This document shows positions 1,777 through 47,664 of a DNA stretch of 64,000 nt, piece after piece; the first letter of the stretch is position 1; the number at the start of each line of letters is the position of its first letter. Below the pieces are notes generated by a model, which saw nothing but the letters and a program-made list of their open reading frames with translations, did not search any database and was not told the DNA's origin. The stretch is from an uncultured bacterium (GTDB taxonomy: Bacteria; Patescibacteriota; Kazan-3B-28), in NCBI GenBank assembly GCA_963695435.1, contig OY968788.1, positions 413,456 through 477,455 on the forward strand, read 5' to 3'. The position numbers were made by a program, and so were the translations under genes.

Positions 1777-1831
1777 ACACTGCTCTAATACGGAGTATGC
1801 TTTTTTATTCTATTACAAACCCGACTGTAAG

Positions 1832-4938: not shown

Positions 4939-4959
4939 TAAGTTTATTGTCGCACAAAA

Positions 4960-4989: not shown

Positions 4990-5027
4990 TAATTCGAATA
5001 ACCTTCTAATTTATAAAAGGTAAAAGA

Positions 5028-7915: not shown

Positions 7916-9695
7916 GCAGTCGGATATCTCGAAAATCCGCCACTCCGCCAGTCATATCTTGGCGGAAGCGGTTTTGAATCTGTATCCCAAGACTAAACTC
8001 GCCATCGGCCCCGCCGTTGAGGATGGATTTTACTATGATTTGGATTTTCCCACTCCTCCCGAGGAGAAGGAGTTGGAAAAGATAGAAGCTGAAGCAAATC
8101 GGATAATTTCCGAAGAGCGGACTTTCAAGCGTTCCGAAATGCCGATTGATGAGGCAATTGAACAAGCGAAGGCGGAAAAACAACCTTACAAGACAGAATT
8201 GTTGGAAGATTTGAAAGCGCGGGGCGAGAAAATTGTTTCCTTCTATAGCTCGATGTCGGGCGATAAAATTACTTTTACCGATTTGTGCGCTGGTCCACAT
8301 GTGGATAATACCTCCGAAATTGGCGCGTTTAAAATTACAAAATTAGCCGGTGCCTACTGGCGCGGTGACGAAAAAAATAAACAACTCACTCGCATTTACG
8401 GAACTGCCTTTGCGACTAAAGAAGAATTGGACGAATATTTGTTGATGCTGGAAGAAGCAAAGAAACGCGACCATCGCAAACTCGGTCAAGAATTAGATTT
8501 GTTTTCACTACACGAAGAAGCTGGTTCGGGTTTGGTGTATTGGCATCCTAAAGGAAGTCGGGTTAGAAAAGTTGTTGAAGATTTTTGGCGGGAAGAACAT
8601 ATTCGCAACGGTTATGAAATTTTGTTCACCCCGCACATAGGAAGAGCGTGGTTGTGGGAAACTTCTGGACATCTTGGGTACTACAACGAAAATATGTACT
8701 CCCCAATGGAGATAGATAAGGATGATTATTACATCAAGCCGATGAATTGTCCTTTCCATATTTTGATGTACAAAACCCGCACTCGTTCATATCGGGATTT
8801 GCCAATGAGGTGGGCAGAGCTTGGAACAGTTTACCGCTACGAGCGCTCGGGTGTTTTGTATGGATTACTTCGGGTTCGCGGATTTACGCAAGATGACGCG
8901 CATATTTTCTGTACGCCTGAACAAATCGAAGATGAGGTTTCGGAAACTTTGCGATTCTCACTTTCAATGTGGAAAGCATTTGGATTTACTGATATCAAGG
9001 CATATCTTGCTACTAAGCCCGAAAAAAGTGTTGGTGATTCTGCTGATTGGGATGTTGCGATTGAATCTTTGCGCAAAGCTATAGATAAGGAAGGTTTGCA
9101 ATATGAAATGGACGAGGGCGGAGGCGCATTTTATGGACCGAAGATTGATTTGAAAATAAAAGATGCTCTGGGGCGGGAATGGCAGATGACCACGATTCAG
9201 TTCGATTTCACTCTGCCTGAAAGATTTGATATGACTTTTGTGGATGCCACTGGCAAAGAGCGCCGACCATTTATGGTGCATCGGGCGTTGCTTGGTTCTA
9301 TTGAAAGATTTTTTGGCGTATTGATTGAACATTACGCTGGAGCATTTCCGGTTTGGCTGGCTCCTGTGCAGGTGAAAGTTCTCCCTATTAGCGAAAAACA
9401 TTTGGAATATGCGGGGAAGGTTTATCAGGAATTACGCGAAGCGGGTTTGAGGGCAGAACTGGATGAAAGCAACGAATCGGTTGGCAAGAAAATCCGCGAA
9501 GCGGAAATAAATAAGATACCTTATATGTTGGTGGTTGGTGATAAGGAAAAAGAAGCTGGCACAGTTGCAGTTCGTAGTCGCGCTAAGGACCCCGCCTGCA
9601 ACGATGAGCGTAGCACTTCGGGCAGGGATTTGGGCGCGATGGATGTGAAAAAGTTTGTGAAATTAATTCACAATGAGATTAACGCGAAAAGATGA
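7875..9695 (+). CDS. thrS: Threonyl-tRNA synthetase.
   Basis: SASHILAEAV second-additional-domain signature. Class II catalytic core (HRKLGQELDLF, FTPHIGRAWLWETSGH). C-terminal anticodon-binding domain. 5' end overlaps the previous gene, so the true start may be an internal Met. Confidence 0.9.
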   Translation: MRMAKKIRNAKADKQSDISKIRHSASHILAEAVLNLYPKTKLAIGPAVEDGFYYDLDFPTPPEEKELEKIEAEANRIISEERTFKRSEMPIDEAIEQAKAEKQPYKTELLEDLKARGEKIVSFYSSMSGDKITFTDLCAGPHVDNTSEIGAFKITKLAGAYWRGDEKNKQLTRIYGTAFATKEELDEYLLMLEEAKKRDHRKLGQELDLFSLHEEAGSGLVYWHPKGSRVRKVVEDFWREEHIRNGYEILFTPHIGRAWLWETSGHLGYYNENMYSPMEIDKDDYYIKPMNCPFHILMYKTRTRSYRDLPMRWAELGTVYRYERSGVLYGLLRVRGFTQDDAHIFCTPEQIEDEVSETLRFSLSMWKAFGFTDIKAYLATKPEKSVGDSADWDVAIESLRKAIDKEGLQYEMDEGGGAFYGPKIDLKIKDALGREWQMTTIQFDFTLPERFDMTFVDATGKERRPFMVHRALLGSIERFFGVLIEHYAGAFPVWLAPVQVKVLPISEKHLEYAGKVYQELREAGLRAELDESNESVGKKIREAEINKIPYMLVVGDKEKEAGTVAVRSRAKDPACNDERSTSGRDLGAMDVKKFVKLIHNEINAKR

Positions 9696-13579: not shown

Positions 13580-13652
13580 CGGGGCGTAGCGCAGTTGGTA
13601 GCGCGCCGCGTTTGGGACGCGGAGGTCGCACGTTCGAATCGTGTCGCCCCGA
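13580..13652 (+). tRNA. tRNA-Pro (anticodon TGG).
   Basis: Cloverleaf readable: acceptor CGGGGCG/CGCCCCG, U8, D-stem GCGC, anticodon stem CCGCG/CGCGG with loop TTTGGGA, T-loop TTCGAAT. Flanked by complementary ggcttgggg/ccccaagcc. Confidence 0.85.
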
Positions 13653-13736
13653 CCCCAAGCCATCACAAAAATATGCGCGGTCCGACACTTCGGTCGGACA
13701 GGTCGTTTTGTCGCCCCGACCAGATACAATAGTCCT

Positions 13737-15029
13737 ATGAGATACACTCAATCTTTCATCAAAACTATTCGGGAAGTTCCCAAGGAAGCGGAGGTAATCA
13801 GCCACCAATATCTTCTGCGGGGTGGATTTGTCACGACACTAGCGGCGGGTTTTTACACTTACCTCCCGATGGGATTTCGGGTGTTTCGGAAAATCTACGA
13901 CATCATCACCGAAGAGCTGAACAAGATAGGTGTCGAAGATATGATAATGCCTGTCGTTCATCCAGCCAGACCGTGGAAAGAAACAAAGAGATTTTTTGAA
14001 GTTGGACCCGAATTGTGGAAAATCAAAAACCGTTCGGACGAAGATTTTGTATTGGCAATGACTCACGAGGAAATCGTGACAGACGCCGCCAAAAAAATTA
14101 TCAATTCATATAAAGATTTGCCGAAGTTGGTCGGTCAAATCCAAACCAAAGTTCGTGATGAAGCGCGAGTACGGGGCGGATTACTGCGTTTGCGCGAATT
14201 TACAATGCAAGATGCTTATTCTTTCAACCGAGACGAAAAAGGATTGGATGAAATTTATCTGAAGTTTATTGATGCCTATAAAAATATATTTGAACGGATG
14301 GGTGTCAAGACAGTAGTGATTGAATCCGACACGGGCGCAATGGGCGGAAGCGGTGCGCACGAATTTATGATGATTGCGGAATCCGGCGAGGATAAAATTG
14401 TCACCGATGGCGAGCGTGCGGTAAATGCGGAGAAATTAGGGATTACTCGGGAAGATGATTTGAAGTCGGTTGATTCCCGTCGCAAGATCGAGGCGTTTTT
14501 TGGCGCTGGCAAAAAAGTAGAATTCCTGCGAGGAATTGAAGTTGGAAACATCTTTAAGCTTGGGACGAAATACTCTACCCCCCAGAAACTGATGTATATA
14601 GATGAAAACAACGAATCCAAGCCGGTGATTATGGGAAGTTATGGAATCGGTTTGGATAGGTTAGTGGCCGCGATTGTGGAAGCCAGTCATGATGACAAAG
14701 GAGTCATTTGGCCAAAAGCAGTCGCCCCGCATCAAGTTCATTTAGTGAGTTTAGGAAACGATCCAATAGTGACAGCGGCGGCTACCAAACTTTATGAAAG
14801 TTTAAATTCATCCGGAATTGATGTTTTCTATGATGACCGCGAAGAAGTTAGCGCGGGAGAAAAATTTTCGGATGCGGATTTGATTGGAATCCCCTGCCGA
14901 GTGACCATTAGCAACAAAACATTGGCAGAAGATTCTGTCGAAATTAAATTGCGCAACTCTCAAGATGCAAAGCTGGTGAAATTGACAGAAATGACAAAAA
15001 AACTGAAGGAAGATTTTTTGTCATCCTGA
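13737..15029 (+). CDS. proS: Prolyl-tRNA synthetase.
   Basis: Class II aaRS motifs and C-terminal anticodon-binding domain. Start set at MRYTQSF because the ORF-track start overlaps tRNA-Pro. The TGA stop lies inside a family-1 repeat. Confidence 0.85.
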   Translation: MRYTQSFIKTIREVPKEAEVISHQYLLRGGFVTTLAAGFYTYLPMGFRVFRKIYDIITEELNKIGVEDMIMPVVHPARPWKETKRFFEVGPELWKIKNRSDEDFVLAMTHEEIVTDAAKKIINSYKDLPKLVGQIQTKVRDEARVRGGLLRLREFTMQDAYSFNRDEKGLDEIYLKFIDAYKNIFERMGVKTVVIESDTGAMGGSGAHEFMMIAESGEDKIVTDGERAVNAEKLGITREDDLKSVDSRRKIEAFFGAGKKVEFLRGIEVGNIFKLGTKYSTPQKLMYIDENNESKPVIMGSYGIGLDRLVAAIVEASHDDKGVIWPKAVAPHQVHLVSLGNDPIVTAAATKLYESLNSSGIDVFYDDREEVSAGEKFSDADLIGIPCRVTISNKTLAEDSVEIKLRNSQDAKLVKLTEMTKKLKEDFLSS

Positions 15030-17107: not shown

Positions 17108-17734
17108 ATGAAAAACAAGATTAGTAACCTTTTACAGGTTCAGGCAGAAATCAGCCGACAAGCCTTAGTGCTTGGCACGGTTTTGTTTTTCGCTGGTGTG
17201 ATGTCAATCGCAACAATCAAAGTTAGTAGTGCGGCTACCGGTGATACCAATATGCTGCAAAATGTTGAGGGTGGGGCTATGGCATTTGATAATGTTCCTA
17301 ATAATGTCAACTTTGGAGCTACTTCTCTGGGGGAGGTAAATGCAAATGTTAGTACTGGTAGCAGTGGTATTGTTCTTAACGATCTTCGTGGAACTAAGGC
17401 GGGTTGGTCAATTACTGGTTATGTAAATAGTAATTTTTATAGTGCTGCTACACCGGCCACCCAAATGGCTGTTGCGGATAGGTTGACTTGGCTCGCAAAT
17501 GCCGTAACAATCGCAAATATTACTGGTGATACTGGAGGCGTTGTCCAACAAGCTAATAATACTTTTACCGCAGCGGGTGATGCTGCTAATTTGACTCTTG
17601 CCCTTGATGTTGGTTCAGGTAATAATGGCGCGGGAGCTTACAATATTACTAATTTGGAATTTCAATATGATGTTCCTGCGTTAGCAACAGTTGCTGCTGA
17701 TTATAAAACAATGTTTACATTAACCATCGTCTAA
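17108..17734 (+). CDS. Small secreted surface protein with WxL-like C-terminal domain. Paralog of 5028..5639.
   Basis: Signal anchor ALVLGTVLFFAGVMSIA. Gly/Ala/Asn/Thr-rich body. GWSITGY and RLTWLANA (W-x-L) motifs. C-terminal YKTMFTLTIV. Monocistronic between a consensus promoter and a terminator. Confidence 0.55.
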   Translation: MKNKISNLLQVQAEISRQALVLGTVLFFAGVMSIATIKVSSAATGDTNMLQNVEGGAMAFDNVPNNVNFGATSLGEVNANVSTGSSGIVLNDLRGTKAGWSITGYVNSNFYSAATPATQMAVADRLTWLANAVTIANITGDTGGVVQQANNTFTAAGDAANLTLALDVGSGNNGAGAYNITNLEFQYDVPALATVAADYKTMFTLTIV

Positions 17735-17758
17735 TTACTTTACTTAGGAATAGTGGAT

Positions 17759-17788
17759 AAATCAGGGCTTATAAGCCCTGATTTTTTA
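17759..17788 (+). terminator. Rho-independent terminator after the WxL-like gene.
   Basis: aatcagggctt-ata-aagccctgatt followed by TTTTTTAT. Confidence 0.8.
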
Positions 17789-17826
17789 TTTGTACCGATA
17801 AATTAGTCTTATGGTAATCTAATACT

Positions 17827-19395
17827 ATGAGACGCCGTAAACAGCAACCGCGATTCTCTTTGCCACTAACGATAGCCAGAACAACTGTTGCTAAGAAGTG
17901 GCGAGAGTTTTGGAATCAATTCGATACGCTAACTTGGTTGCTGTTTGGTCTGCTTCTGACTTTTTGCTGGAGGATACCTACAACCGACCCTGATTTCGGC
18001 TGGCATTTGCGTTCAGGGTTAGACCTGCTAAAGAATTTTTTTGTCCCCAAATTTGACCCATATTCATACACTCTCCCCGATTGGCCGTGGGTGAACCACG
18101 AATGGCTGGCTGACGGGTTGGCAGCTCTAATTTACAAAGCAGGTGGAATCTGGGGGCTAAGCTTGGTGTTCGCAATCCTTCTGATAGGAATCTTTTTATT
18201 GGCTGCTTCTGCGACCAAAAAAGTAAAAAATAGATATAAAATATTGGCTGGTCTGGTAGCTATTTTGGCAGCATCACCGATTTTGGGGGTTCGAATGCAG
18301 ATGATTACCCTCTTGGGGATGGTCTGGCTCTTGTGGATTTTATATCGCTATCGTATTGGTGAAATTAAGCACCTGTGGTGGCTTCCTGTTATCTTTCTTT
18401 TTTGGGCAAACCTTCACGGTGGATTCTTAATGGGGTTTGTTGTTTTGGGAATATTCTGGTTAGTTGAGGGTATAAAGTTTATCGTCAAACAGTATCGGCT
18501 GAAGTGGTATAAGTGGTTAAAAATTGATGAGGCGAGTTTGGGTGGACCAAAACTTAAACATCTCCTTCTGATAAGCGGATTATCTTTTCTTGCGACCTTC
18601 ATCAATCCTTACGGCTGGGGGCTGTACTACGATTTTTACAAATTATTTACCAATCCTTTTGCAATAAAGAATATTTCGGAATGGCAACCAGTATCATTGG
18701 CTAGCACCTTGTCGGCGAACTTTACGCTGTATATGATTTTGTTCGCAGTGCTTTTACTTTTGACTTACCGAAAAGTTGAGCCGACTCGCTGGGCGATTAC
18801 GGGTTCATTTTTATGGCTTTCGTTTTTGTATTGGCGTAATCTCCCCTTCTTTATGGTGATGAGTGTTGGTTTTTTGGCGGAAACAATTCAAGAACATACG
18901 CATCTGATTTTTGACTATATAGCCCGACAACGCTGGATACTGGTCAGTTGGGTGATAATTGTTGGAATTATTGTGTCCCAACAGATTATTAGTATTAGTG
19001 ACCGGATACAGTACCCTACTATCGGCTTACAGGCGGCTGGTTATCCTGTGGAGGCGGTGAAATGGATTCAGCAAAACCGCGGAGAATTGGGTGACAAAAT
19101 GTTCAACGAATATGACTGGGGTGGTTATCTCATCTGGAAATTACCCGAATACAAAGTATTTCTAGACGGTCGGATGCCTTACTGGCAGATTGGCGACAGA
19201 TTCCCCTTTGTTGATCATCAGTATGCAATGTCGGCTCAAGCGGGTTCGATTGAAATGTTGGAAAATAAGTATGGGGTGGACTGGTTTCTAATTAGACAGG
19301 GACGACCGTTGGCCGTTGCGTTGTATGGGCAAACTGAAAAGTGGAAAGAAGTATATCGTGACGGAGCAGCAGTGATTTATCGGAAAATTATTTAG
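17827..19395 (+). CDS. GT-C fold membrane glycosyltransferase. Paralog of 1832..3337.
   Basis: Shares the DPDFGWHL loop and the C-terminal EYDWGGYLIWKLPEYKVFLDGRMPYW block with 1832..3337. More than 10 TM helices. Confidence 0.6.
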   Translation: MRRRKQQPRFSLPLTIARTTVAKKWREFWNQFDTLTWLLFGLLLTFCWRIPTTDPDFGWHLRSGLDLLKNFFVPKFDPYSYTLPDWPWVNHEWLADGLAALIYKAGGIWGLSLVFAILLIGIFLLAASATKKVKNRYKILAGLVAILAASPILGVRMQMITLLGMVWLLWILYRYRIGEIKHLWWLPVIFLFWANLHGGFLMGFVVLGIFWLVEGIKFIVKQYRLKWYKWLKIDEASLGGPKLKHLLLISGLSFLATFINPYGWGLYYDFYKLFTNPFAIKNISEWQPVSLASTLSANFTLYMILFAVLLLLTYRKVEPTRWAITGSFLWLSFLYWRNLPFFMVMSVGFLAETIQEHTHLIFDYIARQRWILVSWVIIVGIIVSQQIISISDRIQYPTIGLQAAGYPVEAVKWIQQNRGELGDKMFNEYDWGGYLIWKLPEYKVFLDGRMPYWQIGDRFPFVDHQYAMSAQAGSIEMLENKYGVDWFLIRQGRPLAVALYGQTEKWKEVYRDGAAVIYRKII

Positions 19396-19472: not shown

Positions 19473-20912
19473 ATGGAATCTGTGAACAATCGAAAATTGT
19501 TAGCACGAACAACTGGAATTTTACTCTTGACTGTAGCGTTGTCAGCTGTGGCAGCTTTGCCTATGTCGGCTTTAGCATTGTCTACGGGTAGTATGGGTAT
19601 ATTACCCGCTCATCCAGATCCGAGTATCCCTCTCTCTAGTAGCTGGTTTTTATATGAAGTGGATCCTGGTGCCACCATTGAAGACGCTGTTCAGATATCA
19701 AACCCCGGTGATAAATCAACTAAATTAAAATTGGAAGGTCTAGATGCGGGGATGAATGATGATGGCGGGTTTGGGTTGGCCAGTTCTTCTGAAGAAAATG
19801 AGGATATTGGCAAGTGGATTACTCTGGAAAGTAGCGAAATCAGTCTAGCACCTAAGGAAAAAAAGATTGTGAAATTTACCGTCAATGTTCCCCTTGATGC
19901 TGATGTGGGAGACCATATTGGAGGGTTGGCTGTATATAAGATGAGTGACGTGGCCGACGAGACTGTTAAGGCGGGCGGAGCTAGTGTGGGTATTTCTACT
20001 CGAGTTGGAGCTCGAATTTATTTGACGGTCAAAGGTGATATTGTCCGAAAGTTAATTTTGAAAAGTAAAAAGTTTTTTAGTCGAGGCAAGACAATGCTCT
20101 TTCGATTCAAGTGGGAGAATAAAGGAAATGTTCGCGCCAAACCAATTGCTAATGGAAAAATTTACGGGATTTTTGGAGTGTATCATGTTGTTGATAATGT
20201 TAGTTTGGGCGAAATTTTCCCCAAAAAGAATGTTGTGAGAGAAGTTGCATTACAAGGGAAGGACCGACCAATATTCGGACCGTATTTAGCGGTTCTAAAA
20301 ATCCAAGATGAATTTACAGGTCTTAACCCCACAAACCCAATCCCGACAACCGAACCGTTTACGGTCTGGATGTTCACCTTCTTCATCCCCTACACTCAAG
20401 TTTTGATTCTATTGATTCTGCTGTTCTTGGTTTGGTTCTTTATGCAACTTAGAAAATGGCGACAGATGATTAATCTTTCAAAAACACCAGTGGCCACTTA
20501 CAAAATAAACAAGGGCGATCATTTGACAAGTATCGCATCTCGGTACGGTGTGAATTGGAAATTGTTGGCAAAACTGAACGAAATCAAACCGCCGTACAGT
20601 CTCGACGGAGTTACCCAGATTTATGTGCCTGACGTCAGAGGCACTCGGCGAAATATCCGTGTCCCCCACTTTTTGACCTATATCACCAGACCATTACATC
20701 ATTTCTTGGTTGATTTTGTTGCTCGCTTCTTAAAGAAAAAGAAGCTATATTACACCATCGTGGTTGATGGGAATGATACTAAAGAAGATATTGAGAAGTT
20801 CACTAAAATGAGTTGGGCGGAAATTGCCAGATATAACGGAATTGGAGCAACTGCTCGTCCTAAAGTTGGTCAGGAACTTCGAATCCCTCACCGCCGACTA
20901 AAATCAAAATAA
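19473..20912 (+). CDS. Surface protein: signal peptide, DUF916-like domain, TM helix, two LysM domains. Paralog of 274..1776.
   Basis: Same architecture and conserved motifs as 274..1776. TM segment WMFTFFIPYTQVLILLILLFLVWFF. LysM blocks YKINKGDHLTSIASRYG... and YTIVVDGNDTKEDIEKF...GQELRIP. Confidence 0.7.
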   Translation: MESVNNRKLLARTTGILLLTVALSAVAALPMSALALSTGSMGILPAHPDPSIPLSSSWFLYEVDPGATIEDAVQISNPGDKSTKLKLEGLDAGMNDDGGFGLASSSEENEDIGKWITLESSEISLAPKEKKIVKFTVNVPLDADVGDHIGGLAVYKMSDVADETVKAGGASVGISTRVGARIYLTVKGDIVRKLILKSKKFFSRGKTMLFRFKWENKGNVRAKPIANGKIYGIFGVYHVVDNVSLGEIFPKKNVVREVALQGKDRPIFGPYLAVLKIQDEFTGLNPTNPIPTTEPFTVWMFTFFIPYTQVLILLILLFLVWFFMQLRKWRQMINLSKTPVATYKINKGDHLTSIASRYGVNWKLLAKLNEIKPPYSLDGVTQIYVPDVRGTRRNIRVPHFLTYITRPLHHFLVDFVARFLKKKKLYYTIVVDGNDTKEDIEKFTKMSWAEIARYNGIGATARPKVGQELRIPHRRLKSK

Positions 20913-20914: not shown

Positions 20915-23900
20915 ATGAGGTGTTTGATGGTTACTCGTCACCGAATTACTACACAGCGAGCCATTCCCCCATCATCAATCTGGTGGCTAACTGTACTCGT
21001 ATTAGTGAGTTTGTTTTGTGATTTACCAATGGCTGGTGCAGTAACCAACGACGCCATGATGGTCTATGACACTCAAACGATTACCTCAACTCCAAAGTAT
21101 CAACGATGGAACGGATCATGGGGTGGTGAAGCATCAGCTAACACGACCACTGGAGAGATTAGATACATGGAGCTGAAGTTTTCACCCGTAGCCGACCAAG
21201 CTATTTTAGTAACTCAAGGTAGCAGTGGAGTGTTAGAAGCTCAAGTCTGGACAGGAGGAGGAACTAATAGTTGGGGGGCAATCACGATTATTGGGACAGT
21301 CGGAGCTGGGACATTAGAAGGAGCTGGGATTAATGATGGTGAACAGTTTCGATGTTGGGATATTGAGTATGAACAAGTGTCTGGTGATGCGGTAATTGTC
21401 TACCAAGATGGAACGGCCGATCCAGATTACAAAGTGTATTCTAGTGGGGCTTGGTCTGTTAGCGGATCTGACATAAATATTCTCACTACTGGGGCACCGG
21501 CTTGGATCGAGTTAGCTTCATCACCAGGAGAAGATTATTTAGCGATGATTTCGATAGATGTGACGATTGATGTCTATGGTATGCGGTGGAACGGAAGCGC
21601 TTGGGATGATATGAATAGCGGTGGGGCGGAAGCAATTTGGGACACTGGTGGGTCAATCTATTACCGTAAGAGTATTGATGTGGCATTTGAAACTAACTCG
21701 GCTGATATTTTATTTATGTGGTATGACGCCACCCAAGATGTTCAAAACTACCGCAGATACACTCAAGGCACCACCACACTAGAAACACTGCAAACTCTGT
21801 CTATGACCAACCAAGCTGGGTTGGGTCAGTGGGTGCAATTGGCAGCCGACCCAACGGCTGGTTCGGACAAGATTATGTATGTGGAACAAGATGCGCAGTT
21901 AGACATTTGGTCAGCGTATTGGGATGGTTCAGCTTGGACGGCTGAGACTGTCGCCCATGATGCGACTGTGGAAATTGTGACTAACATGAACTTTGATGTA
22001 GCTTGGGAAACCTATACTGGTCATACTGGTCATTGCTGGATTGTGTATGGTGATGGGGCTGGTACGTCATCTCGACATTGGAACGGCAGTAGCTGGGACT
22101 CTGTCTCCACCACTCCAACTAGTGATGATGATACTGGGCATGTTCGAGTAGCTGTTCAACCGAATGATGGAACATTATTTGCCATGTCGTACGAAACAAC
22201 TGGTTCAGCTAGTGACAACATTGAAGTTTCATCCAATGCCAGTGGTTCGTCAACTTGGGGAGCCCAAAGTGAAATCTGGGCTGGACCGACTGTAACCGAC
22301 ACTGCGACGGTGGCATTAGGTGGCACTTTCCGGATGGCGATTGCGGCGGAGATATACAGCTCTTCAACCGACGCCATGATGGTCTATGACACTCAAACGA
22401 TTACCTCAACTCCAAAGTATCAACGATGGAACGGATCATGGGGTGGTGAAGCATCAGCTAACACGACCACTGGAGAGATTAGATACATGGAGCTGAAGTT
22501 TTCACCCGTAGCCGACCAAGCTATTTTAGTAACTCAAGGTAGCAGTGGAGTGTTAGAAGCTCAAGTCTGGACAGGAGGAGGAACTAATAGTTGGGGGGCA
22601 ATCACGATTATTGGGACAGTCGGAGCTGGGACATTAGAAGGAGCTGGGATTAATAATGGTGAACAGTTCCGATGTTGGGATATTGAGTATGAACAAGTGT
22701 CTGGTGATGCGGTAATTGTCTACCAAGATGGAACGGCCGATCCAGATTACAAAGTGTATTCTAGTGGGGCTTGGTCTGTTAGCGGATCTGACATAAATAT
22801 TCTCACTACTGGGGCACCGGCTTGGATCGAGTTAGCTTCATCACCAGGTGAGGATTATTTAGCGATGATTGTCCTAGACCAAAACACAGATGTCTACGGC
22901 ATGCGGTGGAATGGGAGTGGCTGGGATGACATGAACAGTGGTGGAGATGAAGCTGTCTGGGACACAGCTGCAGCTTTGTATTACCGCAAATGTATTGATG
23001 TAGCATTTGAAACTAACTCCAACGACATTTTATTTATGTGGTATGACGGTGTCCAAGATGTTCAAAACTACCGCAGATACACCCATGGCACCACCACACT
23101 AGAAACACTGCAAACTCTGTCTATGACCAACCAAGCTGGGTTGGGTCAGTGGGTGCAATTGGCAGCCGACCCAACGGCTGGTTCGGACAAGATTATGTAT
23201 GTGGAACAAGATGCGCAGTTAGACATTTGGTCAGCGTATTGGGATGGTTCAGCTTGGACGGCTGAGACTGTCGCCCATGATGCGACTGTGGAAATTGTGA
23301 CTAACATGAACTTTGATGTAGCTTGGGAAACCTATACTGGTCATACTGGTCATTGCTGGATTGTGTATGGTGATGGGGCTGGTACGTCATCTCGACATTG
23401 GAACGGCAGTAGCTGGGACTCTGTCTCCACCACTCCAACTAGTGATGATGATACTGGGCATGTTCGAGTAGCTGTTCAACCGAATGATGGAACATTATTT
23501 GCCATGTCGTACGAAACAACTGGTTCAGCTAGTGACAACATTGAAGTTTCATCCAATGCCAGTGGTTCGTCAACTTGGGGAGCCCAAAGTGAAATCTGGG
23601 CTGGACCGACTGTAACCGACACTGCGACGGTGACATTAGGTGGCACTTTCCGGATGGCGATTGCGGCGGAGATAGCTGAATCGGCAACACTGGGTATCAC
23701 CGCCCCAACTGATGTCACATTAACCACTGGCAATCCGGGAACAACCGTGGATACGACTTTTGGGACTGGTGAAAAAGTGACTCTGACGGATGGCGGCGCG
23801 GGCTGGACTTTGAGTGCACGGATGCTGGCTACTTTGACTTCAGGCAGTTATACGATTCCCAACACTAATGTGTACTTGCGCAAAGACGGAAATGTCGGAT

Positions 23901-24115
23901 CAAGTGATACTTACACGATTTGGTCAGGAACTTACACTAATGTATCCGAAACAAACGCCACCGAATCGCTGGACGCTTCTCGAACAGTTGGCATACGAAG
24001 CAGTGGAACAGGGGGTGATTCTACCGAAGTGCGACCTAGCATTCAATTGGTGATTCCGCCCAGCCAGACACCAGCCTCAGATTATGCTGGCTCAATCCGA
24101 TTTACTGTCATATAG
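20915..24115 (+). CDS. Giant secreted protein: signal peptide, two tandem 440-aa beta-propeller-like units (W-N-G-S-x-W blades), C-terminal WxL-like domain.
   Basis: Internal 1320-bp tandem duplication (21051..22370 and 22371..23690). Each unit has 7-8 blade-like subrepeats (YxxWNGSxW with DGxxxxxVY). C-terminus has GAGWTLSA (WxL) and ends YAGSIRFTVI, like the two small WxL-like proteins. Confidence 0.6.
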   Translation: MRCLMVTRHRITTQRAIPPSSIWWLTVLVLVSLFCDLPMAGAVTNDAMMVYDTQTITSTPKYQRWNGSWGGEASANTTTGEIRYMELKFSPVADQAILVTQGSSGVLEAQVWTGGGTNSWGAITIIGTVGAGTLEGAGINDGEQFRCWDIEYEQVSGDAVIVYQDGTADPDYKVYSSGAWSVSGSDINILTTGAPAWIELASSPGEDYLAMISIDVTIDVYGMRWNGSAWDDMNSGGAEAIWDTGGSIYYRKSIDVAFETNSADILFMWYDATQDVQNYRRYTQGTTTLETLQTLSMTNQAGLGQWVQLAADPTAGSDKIMYVEQDAQLDIWSAYWDGSAWTAETVAHDATVEIVTNMNFDVAWETYTGHTGHCWIVYGDGAGTSSRHWNGSSWDSVSTTPTSDDDTGHVRVAVQPNDGTLFAMSYETTGSASDNIEVSSNASGSSTWGAQSEIWAGPTVTDTATVALGGTFRMAIAAEIYSSSTDAMMVYDTQTITSTPKYQRWNGSWGGEASANTTTGEIRYMELKFSPVADQAILVTQGSSGVLEAQVWTGGGTNSWGAITIIGTVGAGTLEGAGINNGEQFRCWDIEYEQVSGDAVIVYQDGTADPDYKVYSSGAWSVSGSDINILTTGAPAWIELASSPGEDYLAMIVLDQNTDVYGMRWNGSGWDDMNSGGDEAVWDTAAALYYRKCIDVAFETNSNDILFMWYDGVQDVQNYRRYTHGTTTLETLQTLSMTNQAGLGQWVQLAADPTAGSDKIMYVEQDAQLDIWSAYWDGSAWTAETVAHDATVEIVTNMNFDVAWETYTGHTGHCWIVYGDGAGTSSRHWNGSSWDSVSTTPTSDDDTGHVRVAVQPNDGTLFAMSYETTGSASDNIEVSSNASGSSTWGAQSEIWAGPTVTDTATVTLGGTFRMAIAAEIAESATLGITAPTDVTLTTGNPGTTVDTTFGTGEKVTLTDGGAGWTLSARMLATLTSGSYTIPNTNVYLRKDGNVGSSDTYTIWSGTYTNVSETNATESLDASRTVGIRSSGTGGDSTEVRPSIQLVIPPSQTPASDYAGSIRFTVI
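21051..23690 (+). repeat. Two-copy 1320-bp in-frame tandem duplication inside the giant surface gene.
   Basis: Flanks of the units are nearly identical at the nucleotide level. A central stretch of roughly 220 bp (21551..21770 versus 22871..23090) is diverged at both synonymous and nonsynonymous sites. Confidence 0.9.
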
Positions 24116-24153: not shown

Positions 24154-25281
24154 ATGCGATTTACCTCTGACCTGATAATTAGCGCTTTGGCCGTATTATT
24201 ACTACTGGCTGGCGCTTTGTGGTTGCCGTTAGTCGGGGCTAGTACTGGAAATATGGGGATGTCTCTGGCTGTTGTTGAAGAGGACGACGGTGGCGGCGGA
24301 AGTGGTGGCGGAGGTGGTGGAAATCCAAATCAACCGTCCACACCAGTTATCCCTGTTGTGCCTGTTGTACCCGTACCGCCGAAAGAGTTTAGATTGGTGG
24401 ATTATGTGCCCAAAGTTATACCTGCATATCGCGATACGCCAATCGTTCTGTACGGCTACAATTTCCCTTCAGATTTCAAAATTGTGGTGAAAGCCAGAGA
24501 TGCAATGTTGGTGGCAGATAGCGCTATGGTGAATAAGAAAACTGTCATAATAGAGGGGGCTGTATTAGAGGCCGTACAATATGTTGTTCCCGCAAAAACA
24601 CTAACGCCGGGTGAGGCGGTGTTGCTGATTCAGGAAGCCGACAAGGCGTTAACTTCTCCGTTACCGATATTAGTGTACGATTCTGTCAAAAGAATAAATT
24701 TGCGGGCGCAGATCGCCGAGCGAACAATTAATATAATTGTTGCTAGTGGTCAGTCAGCCAATGTCACCGTCAAATTTAAAAACATTGGGCTGACCGAATG
24801 GGACTATTTGCTCCAGCCGTTACATATCGGTACCAATAGCCCTCATGATCGGCAATCCCGATTTATTCACAAAGATTGGCCCTATAACAATCGGGTGGTA
24901 AAAGTAAGTTTGCCGCCGGATGTAAAGACGGGCGAAACATTTGATGCCACCTTTCCCATCCAAGCCCCCGTGGTAAAACGAACTACTCGTTACACCGAGA
25001 ACTTTGCACTGGTAGCAGAGGGCATCGCTTGGATTCCCGGTTCTAACTTTACCGTCCGGATTACCGTTTCCGCACCGGTGGCGGAGAAGATAGTAAAAGC
25101 GACTACCCAAAAAACTACGCCGGTACCCGCTGTCAAAAAGCCCGCTGCCCCCTACAAAATTCCTAATACCATACCAGCAACTGCTGTTAAGAGTGGTAGT
25201 TGGTTGAGCGGGATAAAATCATTCCTTGCGCAAGCACTTGGTCTTGTGGGAACATTAGCCAGTAATTTACTCCCTAAATAA
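24154..25281 (+). CDS. Secreted, C-terminally anchored hypothetical protein with Gly-rich and Pro-rich linker.
   Basis: Signal peptide. Linker GGGGSGGGGGGNPNQPSTPVIPVVPVVPVPP. C-terminal hydrophobic segment. Directly follows the giant surface gene. Confidence 0.45.
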   Translation: MRFTSDLIISALAVLLLLAGALWLPLVGASTGNMGMSLAVVEEDDGGGGSGGGGGGNPNQPSTPVIPVVPVVPVPPKEFRLVDYVPKVIPAYRDTPIVLYGYNFPSDFKIVVKARDAMLVADSAMVNKKTVIIEGAVLEAVQYVVPAKTLTPGEAVLLIQEADKALTSPLPILVYDSVKRINLRAQIAERTINIIVASGQSANVTVKFKNIGLTEWDYLLQPLHIGTNSPHDRQSRFIHKDWPYNNRVVKVSLPPDVKTGETFDATFPIQAPVVKRTTRYTENFALVAEGIAWIPGSNFTVRITVSAPVAEKIVKATTQKTTPVPAVKKPAAPYKIPNTIPATAVKSGSWLSGIKSFLAQALGLVGTLASNLLPK

Positions 25282-26306
25282 TGTTTCGAAATATGAAAGG
25301 GGTTAATTGGAGTATATTTTTGCTGGTGGCGGCCGTCTTTGTCGGCGCCGGACTTTGGTATGCGGCTGTCAGACCGGGGTTGGAAGAAAATGGCGTTCTG
25401 CCTACTGGTGATTCTAGTATCACGGTGATTGCTGGCGGAGATGTGAATCTGGGGCGACAGACCGGACAGAAAATTTTGGCTGGTGATATCAATTACCCAT
25501 TTGCGAATATGGGTGATACTTTGAAAAATGCTGATGTGGCATTTGTGAATTTGGAAAGTCAGCTGGCTGATTTGGGCGATGAAACTCAATCCCCCACTTC
25601 CGAATACCGCTTTGCCGGTCCGCCAGAAGGAGCGCAAAGTTTAGCAAACGCAGGAATTGATGTTGTATCTCTTGCCAACAATCATATGTGGGATTACGGC
25701 AAAGCGCGGCTGGAAGAAACCATAAGTGCGTTGACCGCTATGAACATTAAATATGTCGGTGCCAATATGGACACAGAAAAAGTTTGGGAACCTGTAATTA
25801 CCGAAGTAAAAGGCAAAAAAATCGCATGGCTGGCAATGACCAACTTGTTGAACGGATACGAAAACGCTGGTGCAAGTAAATATGTCGCGTTTCAGGATGG
25901 CGCAAAGCTAATTGAAGAAATAGGAAAAATAAAAGACAGTGTCGATTGGGTTTTTGTTTCACTGCATAGCGGAGCGGAATATGCTGAAAATCCAAGCTCG
26001 GCGTTGGAAACAATGGCACACGATTTGGTTGATGCAGGTGCAGATGCAGTGTTGGCGGGGCACCCGCATGTACCGCAAAAGATTGAGGTTTATAACGAAA
26101 AACCAATTTTCTATTCCCTCGGTAATTTTGCTTTCTGGCAACCGTTTTCTTTTTGGACACAAAATAGCTTTCTCGCCAAATTAAAACTTACCGAACCACA
26201 CAAAGTGGCGTATGAAGTTATTCCCATTGCCGCCGGCTGGCAACCCTCGCTCCTCACGGATAGTGATGCCATTGCCCAACTAATGGAAAGGATTGTGCCA
26301 CAATGA
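25281..26306 (+). CDS. CapA/PgsA-family metallophosphatase (poly-gamma-glutamate capsule synthesis-type).
   Basis: N-terminal signal anchor. Metallophosphoesterase motifs (GDVNLGRQ, ANNHMWDYG, GHPHVPQ). Membrane-anchored with an extracytoplasmic domain. Confidence 0.7.
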   Translation: MFRNMKGVNWSIFLLVAAVFVGAGLWYAAVRPGLEENGVLPTGDSSITVIAGGDVNLGRQTGQKILAGDINYPFANMGDTLKNADVAFVNLESQLADLGDETQSPTSEYRFAGPPEGAQSLANAGIDVVSLANNHMWDYGKARLEETISALTAMNIKYVGANMDTEKVWEPVITEVKGKKIAWLAMTNLLNGYENAGASKYVAFQDGAKLIEEIGKIKDSVDWVFVSLHSGAEYAENPSSALETMAHDLVDAGADAVLAGHPHVPQKIEVYNEKPIFYSLGNFAFWQPFSFWTQNSFLAKLKLTEPHKVAYEVIPIAAGWQPSLLTDSDAIAQLMERIVPQ

Positions 26307-26941
26307 ACATTCAAGAAATCCTAACTCAACGGCAAAAACTGTTGAAAAAAATACACCAGCTTGAGAAGATCGCGTTTTTTGATCAACTTACAGGTTTGCC
26401 CAATCGCCATGCCTTGGCAGCTGACCTCGTAAAACTCCCTCACGGTCGGACCAAAAGAAGGGGTCGGTTCTTGGGGGTACTTCTGCTTGATATTGACTGG
26501 TTCAAGCCTATCAACGATAAATTCGGGCATCTTACTGGTGACAAAGTACTAAAAAAAGCGGCCAAAATTATTGATGACAGTACTCGAAAAACATTGTTTC
26601 GTTCTGGCGACAAAGTCTACCGCTTTGGGGGCGAGGAGTTCGTGGTTATATTGCTCGGAGTTTCACTTAAGGGTATCTGGGTAATAGCTGAAAGAATTCG
26701 CAAAAATATCGCGAAAAATTTGGTAAAAGAATTTCCTGATATCAAGAAGGTAAGAAGTCGAATCACTATTTCTGTCGGGGGGAAAACCTACGATTTAATG
26801 GAGCTGCAGAAGCAAGCGCTAACCGTGGATCAACTGCAACAGCATCTCGTTGCTGAACCAGATGACTATTTGTACAAAGCTAAAAATTTGGGCAGAAATC
26901 GGATTGTCATAAACGGCAAAAGTTCCCGTCTGCCGTCTTAA
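26303..26941 (+). CDS. GGDEF-domain diguanylate cyclase with N-terminal coiled-coil.
   Basis: LTGLPNRHAL, LLDIDWFKPINDKFGH, RFGGEEFVVIL (GGEEF active-site motif). Confidence 0.8.
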   Translation: MNIQEILTQRQKLLKKIHQLEKIAFFDQLTGLPNRHALAADLVKLPHGRTKRRGRFLGVLLLDIDWFKPINDKFGHLTGDKVLKKAAKIIDDSTRKTLFRSGDKVYRFGGEEFVVILLGVSLKGIWVIAERIRKNIAKNLVKEFPDIKKVRSRITISVGGKTYDLMELQKQALTVDQLQQHLVAEPDDYLYKAKNLGRNRIVINGKSSRLPS

Positions 26942-29867: not shown

Positions 29868-30110
29868 CTCCTACCCCCTGCCATAGGAGGAGGGCTGTAC
29901 TGAATTGAGATAAATTGCCGTCGCGGGGGCATGTTTGAACCCGATAGCTATCGGGTGAGTTTGCCCTTTAAGCGGTAAGGTAATTTATCCAATGAATAAG
30001 CCTGACGACGTGGGCAAGCGGTTTCCGTCGCTTTGACAAGACAAAGCGACAATCGGTCGAGCGCGATTCGGCGCTCGGAAAAAATAACATAAAAAAATGG
30101 CCTTTCGGCC
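29868..30110. repeat. About 250-nt structured intergenic element, copy 1 of 3 (candidate ncRNA or MITE).
   Basis: Shares a 5' block with the other two copies (ccataggaggagggctg versus ccattggaggagggatg). With the copy at 38269 it shares a near-identical core (gcatgtttgaacccgatagctatcgggtgagtttgcc) and a series of hairpins with compensatory substitutions. Confidence 0.6.
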
Positions 30111-30612: not shown

Positions 30613-30732
30613 ATTCCCGCGACGACCTACTTTGGCAGGACCTTGCGGTCCAACTATCATCGGCGCTGGGGAGCTTAACTTCTCTGTTCGGGATGGGAAG
30701 AGGTGTTGCCTCCCCGCTATCATCACGAGAAT
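30613..30732 (-). rRNA. rrf: 5S ribosomal RNA.
   Basis: Reverse complement contains CCGAAC...AGAAGTTAAGC...AGCGCCGATGATAGT at canonical 5S positions. Helix I pairs ATTCTCGTGA with TCGCGGGAAT. About 120 nt. Confidence 0.85.
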
Positions 30733-30779
30733 TCCAAGCCCAAGAGAAACTTGGGTCATCAATTCAATTTACCAATGTG

Positions 30780-31070
30780 TTATTTCTTACTGAAGAATGT
30801 ACGAATCTTTTTCACATCTTCATACGAATCTATCATCAGCACCAGCATTTCAGCGCTGGCTAACCACATAATTGTCAGAATAAATGTCACCAGCAATACA
30901 ACGAATCCGGTAACAATTGGCGAATGCAAAACGAGTGGCATATGCAACTGCATAATCCAAGTGTTATTGATAAATGAAGCGGCGGCCAAGACAATTCCAA
31001 AAATGAAAGTCAGCCAGCCGAGGCCAATAAACACATAGATCATTGCACGAAGCATTTTGAATTGATTCAT
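30780..31070 (-). CDS. ORF for a hydrophobic 96-aa protein inside the 23S-5S spacer. May be spurious.
   Basis: Three predicted TM helices, no Shine-Dalgarno. Sits within the rRNA operon on the same strand. Confidence 0.2.
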   Translation of the reverse strand: MNQFKMLRAMIYVFIGLGWLTFIFGIVLAAASFINNTWIMQLHMPLVLHSPIVTGFVVLLVTFILTIMWLASAEMLVLMIDSYEDVKKIRTFFSKK

Positions 31071-31307
31071 AACATCAATGAAGTTATTTTTACTTATTTA
31101 GCATAAGCCAAAACAACCAATTTTTCCAATGGTTTCCTTAGATCACCGATCTAAGATAAAGCACTAAACTACAAAAGCGAAAAAGCGATTGGCCTATTAG
31201 TACAACTCGGCTGAACGTATTACTACGCTTACACCTGTTGCCTATCAACCAAGTGGTCTACTTGGGGCCTTGCGTCCTTACGGACATGGAAATTGATTTT
31301 GAAGTAT

Positions 31308-31338
<31 letters not shown>

Positions 31339-31477
31339 ATTTCCATACGTAGCTACTCGACAATGCTCTTGGTAGAACAGCCGATACACCAGCGGTATGT
31401 TCACTGAGGTCCTCTCGTACTATCAGCGACTCTCCTCAAATTTCCTCCATCCACAGCAGATAGAGACCGAACTGTCT

Positions 31478-32236
31478 CACGCATGATTGTCCATTATTAC
31501 TAATGGCATAGACTATATCTTCATCCTTTCTGCCCACCGGCAGAGGAGGAGGTGGCGTGTGATAGCGATGATTAACTTTGCGCTATCTCATCAACCCATT
31601 TTGCTTTTAATGAATTGAATCAGTCGTTACGGGGAACGAGTTTATGTTCTTGCAGAAATTGTTTGACCGTTGCTTGTGTGGTCGTGCGTTTCTTGGAGTA
31701 ATTATACTTTGCGGTTTCGTCCACAAGCTTTGCTCTTTTAAGCAATTCTTGGGGCGAGATTCTTTCGTACGAAGAGCCAATTCCTAGCAAACATAAAGCA
31801 ATAACTTTTTGCGCTAGGACTTGTTTCAGCCGTAAATACGGAAGCAACTTGGTTAAAACTTCGTAGACCGGCTGATACCCGACAATCGTGTATTCAGCCA
31901 TATGGTCATTACGAATACGAACATACCCATACTTCAGTTGGCTTTTTAGCCATTCGAGAAAGTCTTTTCTTTCTTCTTTTTGATAAAAGACAATACTAAC
32001 TCGAATCTGATAACCATAGATATATCCGCTACGTTTCACTAGTTGCGCCATAATGCAACCATCTCCGTCTAAGAATCCCGCAATGTAAGCAAGTAATTTT
32101 TCTGCCATAATCTCGATCTTCCCTCGGAATTGCCCTCTTTTCGTTCGGTAAGAGAAAAGTAGGGTTTCTCCGATACAGCCACGTTTATTGTACCGCATTT
32201 CTGCGGTAGAACGCAATGTGATTTACGTTCTGAACC
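31478..32236 (-). mobile_element. Group I intron 1 in 23S (domain V, between GACCGAACTGTCTCACG and ACGTTCTGAACCCAGC) carrying a LAGLIDADG gene.
   Basis: Exon sequence is continuous across the insertion when compared with the 23S consensus. Contains a group-I S-like element (aagatatagtct in RNA sense) and the shared cagtcgttacgggg block. Confidence 0.75.
31620..32216 (-). CDS. LAGLIDADG homing endonuclease (intron-encoded).
   Basis: [19 protein letters not shown] motif, about 200-aa single-motif family. Embedded in 23S intron 1. Confidence 0.8.
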
Positions 32237-32247
32237 CAGCTCGCGTG

Positions 32248-32279
<32 letters not shown>

Positions 32280-32318
32280 AACCTGCTCCAGCTCCAGGAT
32301 GTGACGGGCCGACATCGT

Positions 32319-32608
32319 ACATAATTCCATAGTTTCATATGGTGTAGACTATATCTTCATCCTATCGCAAACCTTAGGTCTAATGGCCATAGTCTTGCTT
32401 TAATGTGATAGGAGGCGGCGTATTACCCTATTTTTGATAATAGAGTTTCCTCTTTCGAGTCAGTCGTTACGGGGTTAATTTTTGCATAGCAAAAATAACT
32501 TCCCACGGTATTGCCCTTCATCTTTTTTGTATACCACTGATGAGTAGGGTTTCACCGTTATAAGCCGCATTTTTGGTATGAGATTGCTCTCATAGCACCC
32601 CAATGTAT
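32319..32608 (-). mobile_element. Group I intron 2 in 23S (between GACATCG and AGGTGCCAAAC). No ORF.
   Basis: About 290-nt insertion. Shares agactatatcttcatc and cagtcgttacgggg blocks with introns 1 and 3. Confidence 0.65.
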
Positions 32609-32649
32609 TAAGGTGCCAAACCAGACCGTCGATATGGACTCTTGGGTCT

Positions 32650-32688
<39 letters not shown>

Positions 32689-33160
32689 GCTTCGGCGCAC
32701 CCATGTGCAACCGTCGGATCACTATATCCTGCTTTCGCATCTGCTTGACTTGTAGGTCTCGCAGTTAAGCTCCCATATACTATTGCGCTATCATCCCGAT
32801 TTCCATCCGGGATTAGGGAACCTTTGAACGCCTCCGTTACATTTTAGGAGGCAACCGCCCCAGTTAAACTACCCGCCAAACGCTGTTCTCCCACCAGATA
32901 ATGGTAAGGAGTTAGAATTAAAAATGTGCTAGGGTGGTATTTCACCGTTGACTCGCCGATGGCTAGCGCCACCGGGTCATAGTCTCCCACCTATCCTACA
33001 CAAACAAATTTCTAACCCAACGCCAGGCTGTAGTAAAGCTCCACGGGGTCTTTTTGTCTTGCTGCGGAAATCCGGCATCTTCACCGGCAATGTAGTTTCG
33101 CCGAGTCCCTCGTTGAGACAGTCTTCAGACCGTTATGCTATTCGTGCGGGTCGGAACTTC

Positions 33161-33506
<346 letters not shown>

Positions 33507-34376
33507 AGGGCTTAGATTCAAAGCTGCACCTTGCGGTTGACCTCTCCTCTTGACCTACTGGCACTGGGCAAGCATCAGTCCCTATACGTCATCTTTCGAT
33601 TTAGCAGAGACCTGAGTTTTTGTTAAACAGTCGCCTGAAGTCTTTAGCTGCGGCCTGTCTTGCGACAGGCAATCCTTATTCCAAAGTTACGGATGATTTT
33701 TTGCCGAGTTCCTTAACGAGGGTTCTCTCGTACGCCTGAGGCTACTCGCCCTATCCACCTGTGTCGGTTTCGGTACGGATGCTTTGAAGTCTCGCTAGAA
33801 GTTTTTCTTGTCAGTCTGGATCAATCGAATCGTCTCATCCCGAAGGAATCAACTTTCCCACAGCTTGGGTTCGGTCCGATAAATCGGACCAGTCTCCCGG
33901 ATTTGCCTAAGAGACACCTTAACTGCTTAGACTCGGAAACCTGTCCGAGCTCAACCTACCAGTCCGCGTCACTCCATTGCTAAACGCGCGAGCCAGCGAA
34001 ACCGACATTTACTTCACCTTGCGGCAAAGCAATCATTCGGCTCACCAATTCGCTTGTTTTGGTCGACTTCAACGCAGTACAGGAATATTAACCTGTTGTC
34101 CATCGCTTACGCCTTGCGGCCTCAGCTTAGGTCCGACTAACCCTGAGACGAAAACCGTTGCCCAGGAAACCTCGGATAAATCGGCGTCGAAGGTTTTCAC
34201 TTCGATCTCGCTACTCGTGCCAACATTCTCACTTCTATGCGCTCCACCCAACCTCACAGTTGAACTTCACTGCAGCATAGAACGCTCCCCTACCACTGCC
34301 ATCTTGCGATGACAATTCGTATCTTCGGTATCCAACTTAGCCCCGTTACATTTTCGGCGCAGACACACATCGACCA

Positions 34377-34433
<57 letters not shown>

Positions 34434-34929
34434 TAATGTGTCTCCACTTCCTTTCACACTTAGTTGGAATTAGGGACCTTAGATGACGATCTGGGCTGTT
34501 TCCCTTTTGATTTACGACGCTTAGCCGCCGTTTTCTGACTCCCAGGCTTTAACCGGTCAGTATTCGGAGTTTAATTGGACGTGGTACCTTGCGGCCCAAA
34601 TCCATTCAGTAGCTCTACCACTGCCGGGAACGCTCTGAGGCTATACCTAAATATATTTCGGGGAGAACCAGCTATCTCTGAGTTCGATTGGCATTTCACC
34701 TCTAACCACAGTTCATCCCCCCACTTTTCAACGTAGGTGGGTGCGGCCCTCCACTGCTTTTTACGGCAGCTTCGGCCTGACCATGGTTAGCTCACTCAGT
34801 TTCGGGTCTAATCCCTGCCACTTCAATCGCGCTATTCGCACTTGCTTTCGCTTCGGCTCCTCTGTCTAAACAGATTAGCCTTGCGGCAGAGATTAACTCG
34901 TTGGCTCATTCTACAAAAGGCACGCCGTC

Positions 34930-35207
34930 GCCCCGCCAATTTAAAGCTCGTATCTAGACGTTGTTTCAGTCTTGTCCACGTGGTTCCATAGTTCTTCAAC
35001 ACTAACTCGCGTTTGCGAGCAGCGTGAGGATCTTGATACGCCTCGTAATAGACAAGTTCATATGCACCACGTTTCTGATGTTCAGACAACCTGCGACGCA
35101 AATCGGGCGTTTGCCCGATGTACGGTTTTCCAGTGTCAGCATTTATCAGTACGTAAAGATAATGCATAAATTAATTATACGTCCATACCAACTCTAAATT
35201 GGCGGGG
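34930..35207 (-). mobile_element. Insertion in the 23S helix-25 region: a 19-bp-arm palindromic element (cccgccaatttaaagctcg/agctctaaattggcggg) carrying a GIY-YIG gene. Likely an RNase III-excised intervening sequence.
   Basis: The arms form a perfect extended stem replacing the helix-25 tip. An empty 48-bp copy of the same palindrome is at 35692..35739. Confidence 0.6.
34945..35167 (-). CDS. GIY-YIG nuclease (YhbQ-like) encoded inside the 23S helix-25 insertion.
   Basis: HYLYVLINADTGKPYIGQTPDLRRRLSEH. The ORF-track C-terminal extension (to 34832) is read-through into the palindrome arm and rRNA. Confidence 0.7.
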
Positions 35208-35265
35208 CTCCGACTCTTAAACGAACACACGGTTTCAGGTACTATTTCACTCCCCTCACAGGGGG

Positions 35266-35305
<40 letters not shown>

Positions 35306-35691
35306 GAGAAATGATATTTAGCCTTACCAGATGGTCCTGGCAGTTTCCGGCAGGATTTCACGGGTCCCACCGTACTTAAGAAAGAATATATCAGAGTGAT
35401 TTGCTTTTCGTTTACGGGACTTTCACCCTCTATGGTTACCCTTTCCAGGGACCTTCAACTAAGCAAACCATTTTTGACTCCTGAGTCGGTTCTACTGTCC
35501 GACAAAATATTCCCCTTGCAACCCTCTCCTACACAACGCCAGTAGGCTATAAGTGTAAGAAAGTTTAGGCTCTTCCCTTTTCGCTCGCCGCTACTAAGGG
35601 AATAAACATTTGTTCTATTTTCCTCGTGTTACTAAGATGTTTCAGTTCACACGGTTCCCTCCTCACTATCTATGTATTCAATAGTGGGTTC

Positions 35692-35739
35692 CCGCCAATT
35701 TAAAGCTCGTATAAAAACCAGCTCTAAATTGGCGGGAGG
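35692..35739. repeat. Empty copy of the 23S-embedded palindrome (cccgccaatttaaagctcg-tataaaaacc-agctctaaattggcggg) within 23S domain I.
   Basis: Replaces a short native hairpin. Both copies begin the loop with tat. Confidence 0.7.
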
Positions 35740-36298
35740 ATTACTCCATTCGGACATTCCCGGATCAGCGGGTGTTTGGCCCCTCCCCGAGACTTTTCGC
35801 AGCCTACTACGTCCTTCTTCGGTCATTTCTCCCAAGGCATCCACCGAGTGCTCTTATGTAGCTTGATCGCTTTTGTTTTCTTAATAAGGCTAGTGCCTTA
35901 TAACTTAAATCGGCGATTTAAGAAAACCATTGCTTTCATTTTTTCATTGATGCCCAAGTTGTCAATGAACCAAATTTCCAAAATCGTTACTGAAAAAACT
36001 CAAAAAAATAGCAGGGATCACCCTGCTTGTGCGAGAACCAATTTAGGTCCGCTTTATGCAGGCGTGAAAGTTAACAAATTCAAATCAGCCGTGTTGGTGT
36101 AACTGGAAAGACTAATATATATGTAGGTGTAACTCAAACGCTTAATTAGTGAGTGATATATAGCTGATATTCAGCTAGTTGGTATTCTATAATATATCCA
36201 AAATCAACGCAAGAGGTTTTCGCCATTTTGTGGGGCAAAAGTCAAGGCAAGGCCGATTTATATCTGGAAATAAGGTTAGACTGGTACAATAAACCCGT

Positions 36299-47601: not shown

Positions 47602-47664
47602 AGGTTTTGTTTTTGATTTTTTACTTTTGATTATTATGACATTATATCTTATTTTTCGGCTTTT

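Follow-up and report, generated by a model that had tools for sequence, protein, structure and literature searches.

Two old beta-propeller units, arranged in tandem in a surface protein gene of an ultrasmall CPR (Patescibacteria) bacterium, have most likely been homogenised recently by intragenic gene conversion, except for a centre of 238 bp; we put the probability of this reading at roughly 0.7. The gene lies in the window, by which we mean the whole stretch of 64,000 nucleotides that was analysed, and its parts are listed in Table 1 together with those of the neighbouring surface genes. The first-pass annotation had already proposed gene conversion homogenising the flanks of the repeat. 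This is still the best explanation, and it is now based on comparison with three relatives, the loci L001, L003 and L035.

Table 1. Coordinates of the propeller gene, its repeat tracts and the adjoining surface genes in the window
Feature	Position	Strand	Basis or remark
Two cluster genes: 208-aa small WxL-like protein and 522-aa protein	17108..19395	+	Syntenic in L001
479-aa protein with WxL-interacting-protein peptidoglycan-binding domain and LysM, upstream	19473..20912	+	PF06030 2.2e-11, LysM 7e-16
Secreted/surface protein gene, 1066 aa	20915..24115	+	ORF list and translation
Left homogenised tract; partner 22369-22848; 478/480 bases the same	21049..21528	+	dS 0.009
Propeller unit 1, protein residues 46-485; linker YSSST at 22355-22369	21050..22369	+	Self-comparison, model
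Diverged centre of unit 1; partner 22849-23086 in unit 2; 77.7% identity	21529..21766	+
Right homogenised tract; partner 23087-23674; 587/588 bases the same	21767..22354	+
Propeller unit 2, residues 486-925, ending AESAT	22370..23689	+	Self-comparison
C-terminal 146-aa beta-rich domain	23675..24112	+	Poor model, pLDDT <50
Downstream 375-aa secreted protein, Gly- and Pro-rich linkers	24154..25281	+	Syntenic in L001

Repeat layout and distribution of the differences

When the gene was compared with itself at an offset of 1320, the tandem repeat of 1320 bp described earlier was found at its place. The comparison was ungapped and the match spans positions 21049 to 22354 (1306 bp). Both units are in frame, each of the 1320-bp copies encodes 440 aa, and their amino-acid identity is 95%. 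The gene had been called giant; it is large, but its product is of 1066 aa only. A public collection holds the protein as P0001, with 1062 aa, on a 560-kb contig.

The mismatches between the units were distributed very unevenly. Their total number was 56 in 1306 bp, and 53 of them fell inside 21529-21766, where 185 of 238 bases matched, as against two in the left flank (21335 and 21349) and a single one in the right flank (22313). The longest exact runs between the window units measured 546, 286 and 179 bp. For this clustering, uniform divergence gave a binomial P of about 1e-35, and in 20,000 uniform permutations the maximum per 238-bp window was 25 mismatches. Thus, the near-identity of the flanks and the non-uniform divergence that had been noticed from the sequence were both confirmed. 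The diverged stretch itself had been placed at 21551-21770; it exists, but its start had to be moved, as the divergence begins slightly earlier, at 21529. The last 14-15 bp of the units differ as well and code for YSSST in unit 1 and AESAT in unit 2. The boundaries between same and diverged stretches are abrupt, and the identical tracts are longer than expected by chance, in the window as well as in L001 and L003.

Phasing and copy number of the units were taken from the assembly alone. An assembly artefact would mean that two strain alleles of the centre were threaded via the repeat graph, or that polishing equalised similar copies. The identical flanks of 480-590 bp would allow this, as a short-read graph permits both orders of the centres and does not show whether the copies belong to a single genome or to two strains. 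Nevertheless, the junction between the units is unique sequence, with orthologues in L001 and throughout the family, which argues that the two units are real, and the three single-base differences in the flanks indicate that the copies were resolved separately. Comparable mosaics are present in two independent assemblies (L001 and L003), the contig is 560 kb long, and polishing cannot raise an identity of about 77% to about 100%. Altogether, we regard an artefact as improbable.

Age of the duplication and concerted evolution across lineages

Two tandem units were found in 26 proteins, the window protein included, and about 25 CPR homologues share the linker too. In the family consensus the units are joined by Y-x-S-S, after which [DE]-A-M follows, and outside the clade of the window protein the two units of one protein are 42% to 68% identical in amino acids. 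The two-unit architecture with its linker is thus ancient and found across the family. Single-unit family members were also found. The homologues come from genomes of Saccharibacteria, Peribacteria, Gracilibacteria, WWE3 and Paceibacterota. Like the group I introns in the 23S rRNA gene of the window, this indicates a CPR/Patescibacteria host. The propeller domain as such matched 1003 representative clusters at E <=1e-3, with one to sixteen matched stretches per protein; truly giant proteins carry it, namely P0049 (6719 aa), P0050 (7926 aa) and P0053 (2681 aa), with up to 16 stretches. At 90% clustering of 15 billion proteins, the cluster of the window protein consisted of one member. Neither alternative alleles nor intermediates of recombination were encountered. 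Single-protein scans of genome and metagenome contig collections found no close relatives, whereas alignment-based scans gave homologues. The propeller family is not mentioned in the Cell 2023 Patescibacteria paper.

In L001 (GCA_964354145.1) the gene order is the same as in the window: a HisRS-like gene, ArgRS, genes for proteins of 205 aa and 515 aa, the LysM gene, the propeller gene, a 480-aa protein gene, PGA_cap and ChlI. When the unit ends of the window and L001 were compared, each matched its positional counterpart (YSSST and YGSST, AESAT and AEGAT), with 75% identity against 33-50% for the cross comparisons. As the linkers pair by position and not by genome, the duplication predates the split of the window and L001 lineages. 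A simple recent duplication is ruled out by these orthologous linkers and by the family-wide two-unit build.

Outside the linker, the relationship was reversed. In all 60-nt segments apart from the linker, identity was 75-100% between the units of the window gene and 63-100% between those of L001, as against 37-82% between units of the two genomes. The homogenised tracts lie at different places in different lineages. Between the L001 units an exact tract of 689 bp at the 5' side was followed by a remainder with dS 0.80, and in L003 (Peribacteria, 44% identical to the window protein) an exact repeat of 479 bp (6811-7289 and 8074-8552) occupies the 3' third of both units, although both tracts come from short-read assemblies (NODE contigs), in which small differences between copies are possibly collapsed. 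In L001 the segment that matches the window centre is 100% homogenised, and the divergence lies in another part of the units. The 5' two-thirds of the L003 units, outside the tract, are about 60-70% identical. Since units are closer within than between genomes and the tract boundaries are specific to each lineage, the pattern points to recurrent intragenic gene conversion.

In the third syntenic relative (L035, protein P0005) the units are only 42% identical in amino acids, and they provide the unhomogenised baseline. When P0005 is taken as outgroup, the homogenised units of the window, like those of L001, form a patchwork of segments that resemble either unit 1 or unit 2, and both window centres are unit-2-like over residues 161-200. 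The patchwork fits repeated conversion in both directions. More distant family members gave a mixed signal for the direction of conversion; the syntenic P0005 was more informative in this respect.

In three independent lineages the tract boundaries lie no more than about 27 residues apart, at unit residues of about 225-252 (window 21722-21805 and 23042-23125; L001 about 10843; L003 about 6811). These sites adjoin the least conserved stretch of the unit, where the nucleotide identity between window and L001 is 37-39% (alignment columns 721-780). The coincidence may reflect a homology barrier or the boundary of a half-propeller; its rough chance probability is about 0.01-0.02.

The gene is a clear case of concerted evolution among the repeat domains of one protein, a phenomenon that is already known. 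As in the tandem repeats of bacterial surface antigens (PMC4534519) and of spidroins (PMC3933166), repeats within the gene resemble each other more than their orthologues, with abrupt boundaries and lineage-specific tract positions. Unlike these systems, the gene studied here has only two units, each of 1320 bp and corresponding to a complete propeller domain; its host is an uncultivated CPR bacterium, and copy-number or phase variation is undocumented here.

According to the proposed mechanism, an ancient tandem of two eight-blade lectin-like beta-propellers in a CPR/Patescibacteria surface protein would have undergone homologous recombination between the units, by which one unit was recently overwritten with the other. 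We suggest that the direct repeats recombined, on one chromosome or between sister chromosomes, by a RecA-type process that acted as intragenic gene conversion or, equivalently, as cycles of linker-keeping unequal exchange (expansion and contraction). Homogenisation in this way would have reached 480 bp at the start of the unit and 588 bp at its end. Under this reading the locus would illustrate cleanly how gene conversion acts on whole protein domains in reduced CPR genomes, and would show that homologous recombination is active in CPR bacteria and shapes their surface proteins.

The diverged centre

Of the eight blades, the centre comprises blade 4 together with the first two strands of blade 5, and blade 4 holds 16 of the 21 amino-acid differences found in the homologous part of the units. 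Between the two centres dS was 1.47, dN 0.13 and omega 0.09, compared with a dS of at most 0.009 in the flanks. Of 39 changed codons in the centre 21, i.e. about half, differ by synonymous changes only; together with the high dS and the low omega this indicates purifying selection on the centre. All 12 classes of substitution occur, and no adenine bias was seen, with adenine involved in 11 of 56 differences when read one way and in 14 of 56 when read the opposite way. The GC3 values of the centres (0.43 and 0.46) are close to that of the gene (0.41). When the 64 kb were searched with tblastn and blastn, only the two units matched, and no third or donor copy of the unit or of the centres was detected.

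The centre had initially been interpreted as a variable cassette. This is not what the codons suggest, and in L001 the very same segment is fully homogenised; neither omega, nor the substitution spectrum, nor the window search gave a sign of diversifying selection or of a programmed cassette. The surface-variation mechanism that had been attached to the cassette has neither a donor copy in the window nor foreign composition behind it and must be considered speculation. In its specific form, this idea would have a diversity-generating retroelement or silent donor cassettes supply new versions of the centre, resulting in surface or antigenic variation. The protein is indeed a surface protein, with differences concentrated in one blade and its loops, but adenine specificity is absent in either direction, the changes are to a large part synonymous under a low omega, the window holds no third copy and the L001 orthologue is homogenised at this segment. 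Programmed diversification is thus largely refuted and, in our estimate, extremely improbable. No reverse transcriptase was found among the 30 window ORFs scanned with Pfam. A diversity-generating retroelement is ruled out by the unbiased spectrum and the half-synonymous changes, a donor cassette does not exist in the window, and a foreign origin of either centre by composition was rejected on the ordinary GC3.

The left and right flanking tracts are equally young. Their origin would require a pair of recent events, a single tract of patchy shape, or conversion over the full length with later import of a centre. In the last case, the whole unit would recently have been homogenised or expanded and contracted, and one unit would then have received a diverged centre from a related strain or allele. 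The few differences in the flanks (2/480 and 1/588) are what a single full-length event would give, and cultivated Saccharibacteria are naturally competent (PMC10633639). On the other hand, dN between the two centres (0.13) is lower than dN between either of them and L001, the nearest known relative (0.32-0.34). The centres have therefore either diverged in this lineage after an older homogenisation, or one of them comes from a fairly close relative. Neither centre is compositionally unusual, no donor-like sequence was found in the window or among the 15 billion proteins clustered at 90%, and a one-sided conversion tract suffices for the mosaics of L001 and L003. Altogether, import appears unlikely, as a minority alternative to conversion.

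With intragenic conversion as the preferred reading, the 238-bp centre would have been left out of the latest event or events and would keep an older divergence, both of its versions being under purifying selection. At a divergence of about 22%, strand exchange would be inefficient in the centre, which would tend to persist as an island; this may be why it escaped. Alternatively, selection could hold the blade-4 island different while conversion holds the rest identical, giving two ligand specificities on a constant scaffold. We consider this rather unlikely; if it were true, swapping of blades between units or strains might retune the recognition of host surfaces by CPR episymbionts. In any case, the locus reveals no new variation mechanism.

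Predicted fold, surface-gene cluster and further features of the window

The N-terminus of the protein contains a basic stretch, a hydrophobic helix (residues 20-35 in the AlphaFold2 model) and an A-x-A-like site recognised by eye, and it reads by eye as a Sec signal or anchor. In the full-length AlphaFold2 model the mean pLDDT was 73.7, with values of about 80-90 in the propellers and below 50 at the C-terminus. A single unit was modelled as a beta-propeller with pLDDT 87.6 and pTM 0.91. Its strands form eight blade-like groups of four according to DSSP on the model and sequence periodicity. Blade repeats of the type W-N-G-S-x-W had been described before; six blades match the related pattern [WY]-x-[GS]-[GST]-x(0-4)-W, and blade 8 (GSSTW) looks similar by eye, which makes seven, so that the description stands for the repeats but in a relaxed form of the motif.

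When the unit model was searched against the PDB with Foldseek, nearly all of the top 39 matches were propeller lectins, including PHL and PLL of Photorhabdus, BP39L, AFL, FleA, AAL and RSL. The top matches were PHL, PLL and BP39L, with E 3e-10, TM 0.56 (query) and 0.70 (target), and 9-13% identity. The lectin-type propeller proposed in the first-pass annotation is thus in agreement with structure prediction, as a statement on fold only: the solved folds nearest to the model are bacterial and fungal propeller lectins. The propeller matched no family of Pfam or NCBIfam, and no match at E <=1 was obtained when PDB sequences were searched with a profile. In PHL, seven blades are present and fucose is bound between blades by paired tryptophans (PMC5584973). 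The window unit resembles the PLL/PHL lectins in its beta-propeller fold and its four-stranded blades with W motifs; these lectins have two conserved tryptophans per repeat, and W-x-G-S-x-W motifs are found in most blades of the window unit. Unlike the lectins, with seven blades of about 48 residues, the unit has eight of about 55 residues, and the propellers form a tandem pair within a secreted multidomain protein. Sequence homology to these lectins was undetectable in the Pfam and PDB searches, and sugar binding is putative here. The propeller protein may function in glycan binding or as an adhesin.

The C-terminal domain is conserved to 69% in L001 and 65% in L035. By eye, this domain, which contains a GWTL motif and ends in DYAGSIRFTVI, and the 208-aa neighbour protein seem to resemble WxL proteins. 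No Pfam match at E <=10 was obtained for either of them, and the C-terminal domain is also without an NCBIfam match. Three neighbour proteins gave no Pfam or NCBIfam match.

In Firmicutes, WxL/Csc cell-surface clusters encode WxL-domain proteins together with a DUF916/WxLIP peptidoglycan-binding protein. Similarly, the propeller gene adjoins a gene with a WxLIP peptidoglycan-binding domain, homologues of which adjoin a propeller gene at 12 or more loci. The window cluster also resembles the WxL/Csc clusters in encoding small and large secreted proteins with a GW-x-L-like motif and a Y-x-G-x-hydrophobic ending at their C-termini. It differs in that the Pfam WxL model is unmatched even at E = 10, another sequence stands in place of the second WxL motif, LysM is present in the neighbour, and the organisms are CPR bacteria. 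As the propeller adjoins a peptidoglycan-binding partner, the protein is a plausible candidate for host attachment in episymbionts. The propeller family in this CPR surface protein is uncharacterised, and the locus draws attention to a widespread lectin-like propeller domain of about 1000 representative clusters for which no Pfam family exists.

Directly downstream of the surface cluster, a PGA_cap gene (poly-gamma-glutamate capsule synthesis-like) and a stand-alone GGDEF diguanylate cyclase gene are located at 25281-26941; synteny of the PGA_cap gene extends to L001 and L035. Another surface-protein cluster, paralogous to the first and devoid of a propeller gene, lies at 274-5681 on the minus strand. 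It encodes a 217-aa small WxL-like protein and proteins of 534 aa, 501 aa and 500 aa, the last one with LysM. The 501-aa protein is 32% identical to the 522-aa protein (17827-19395), and the 500-aa LysM protein is 28% identical to the peptidoglycan-binding LysM protein next to the propeller gene.

Further features were observed elsewhere in the window. The rRNA region occupies 30614-35868 on the minus strand. Its 23S rRNA gene spans 3.7 kb and is interrupted by two group I introns, at 33172-33460 and at 32326-32620; the ORF of a LAGLIDADG endonuclease (31620-32216) begins within the 3' end of 23S, and the 5S gene is at 30614-30730. The 16S gene is not adjacent to the 23S gene; this rRNA layout is typical of CPR genomes. 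Short intergenic direct repeats of about 75% identity are found at 29880-30097, 38280-38386 and 54214-54268. An inverted pair of 56 nt (47662-47717 and 53219-53274), 86% complementary and 5.5 kb apart, brackets a tRNA-rich region. Finally, a tRNA-Pro gene (13580-13654) overlaps the listed GTG start of a class II aminoacyl-tRNA synthetase ORF (13641-15029), the true start of which is probably located further downstream.
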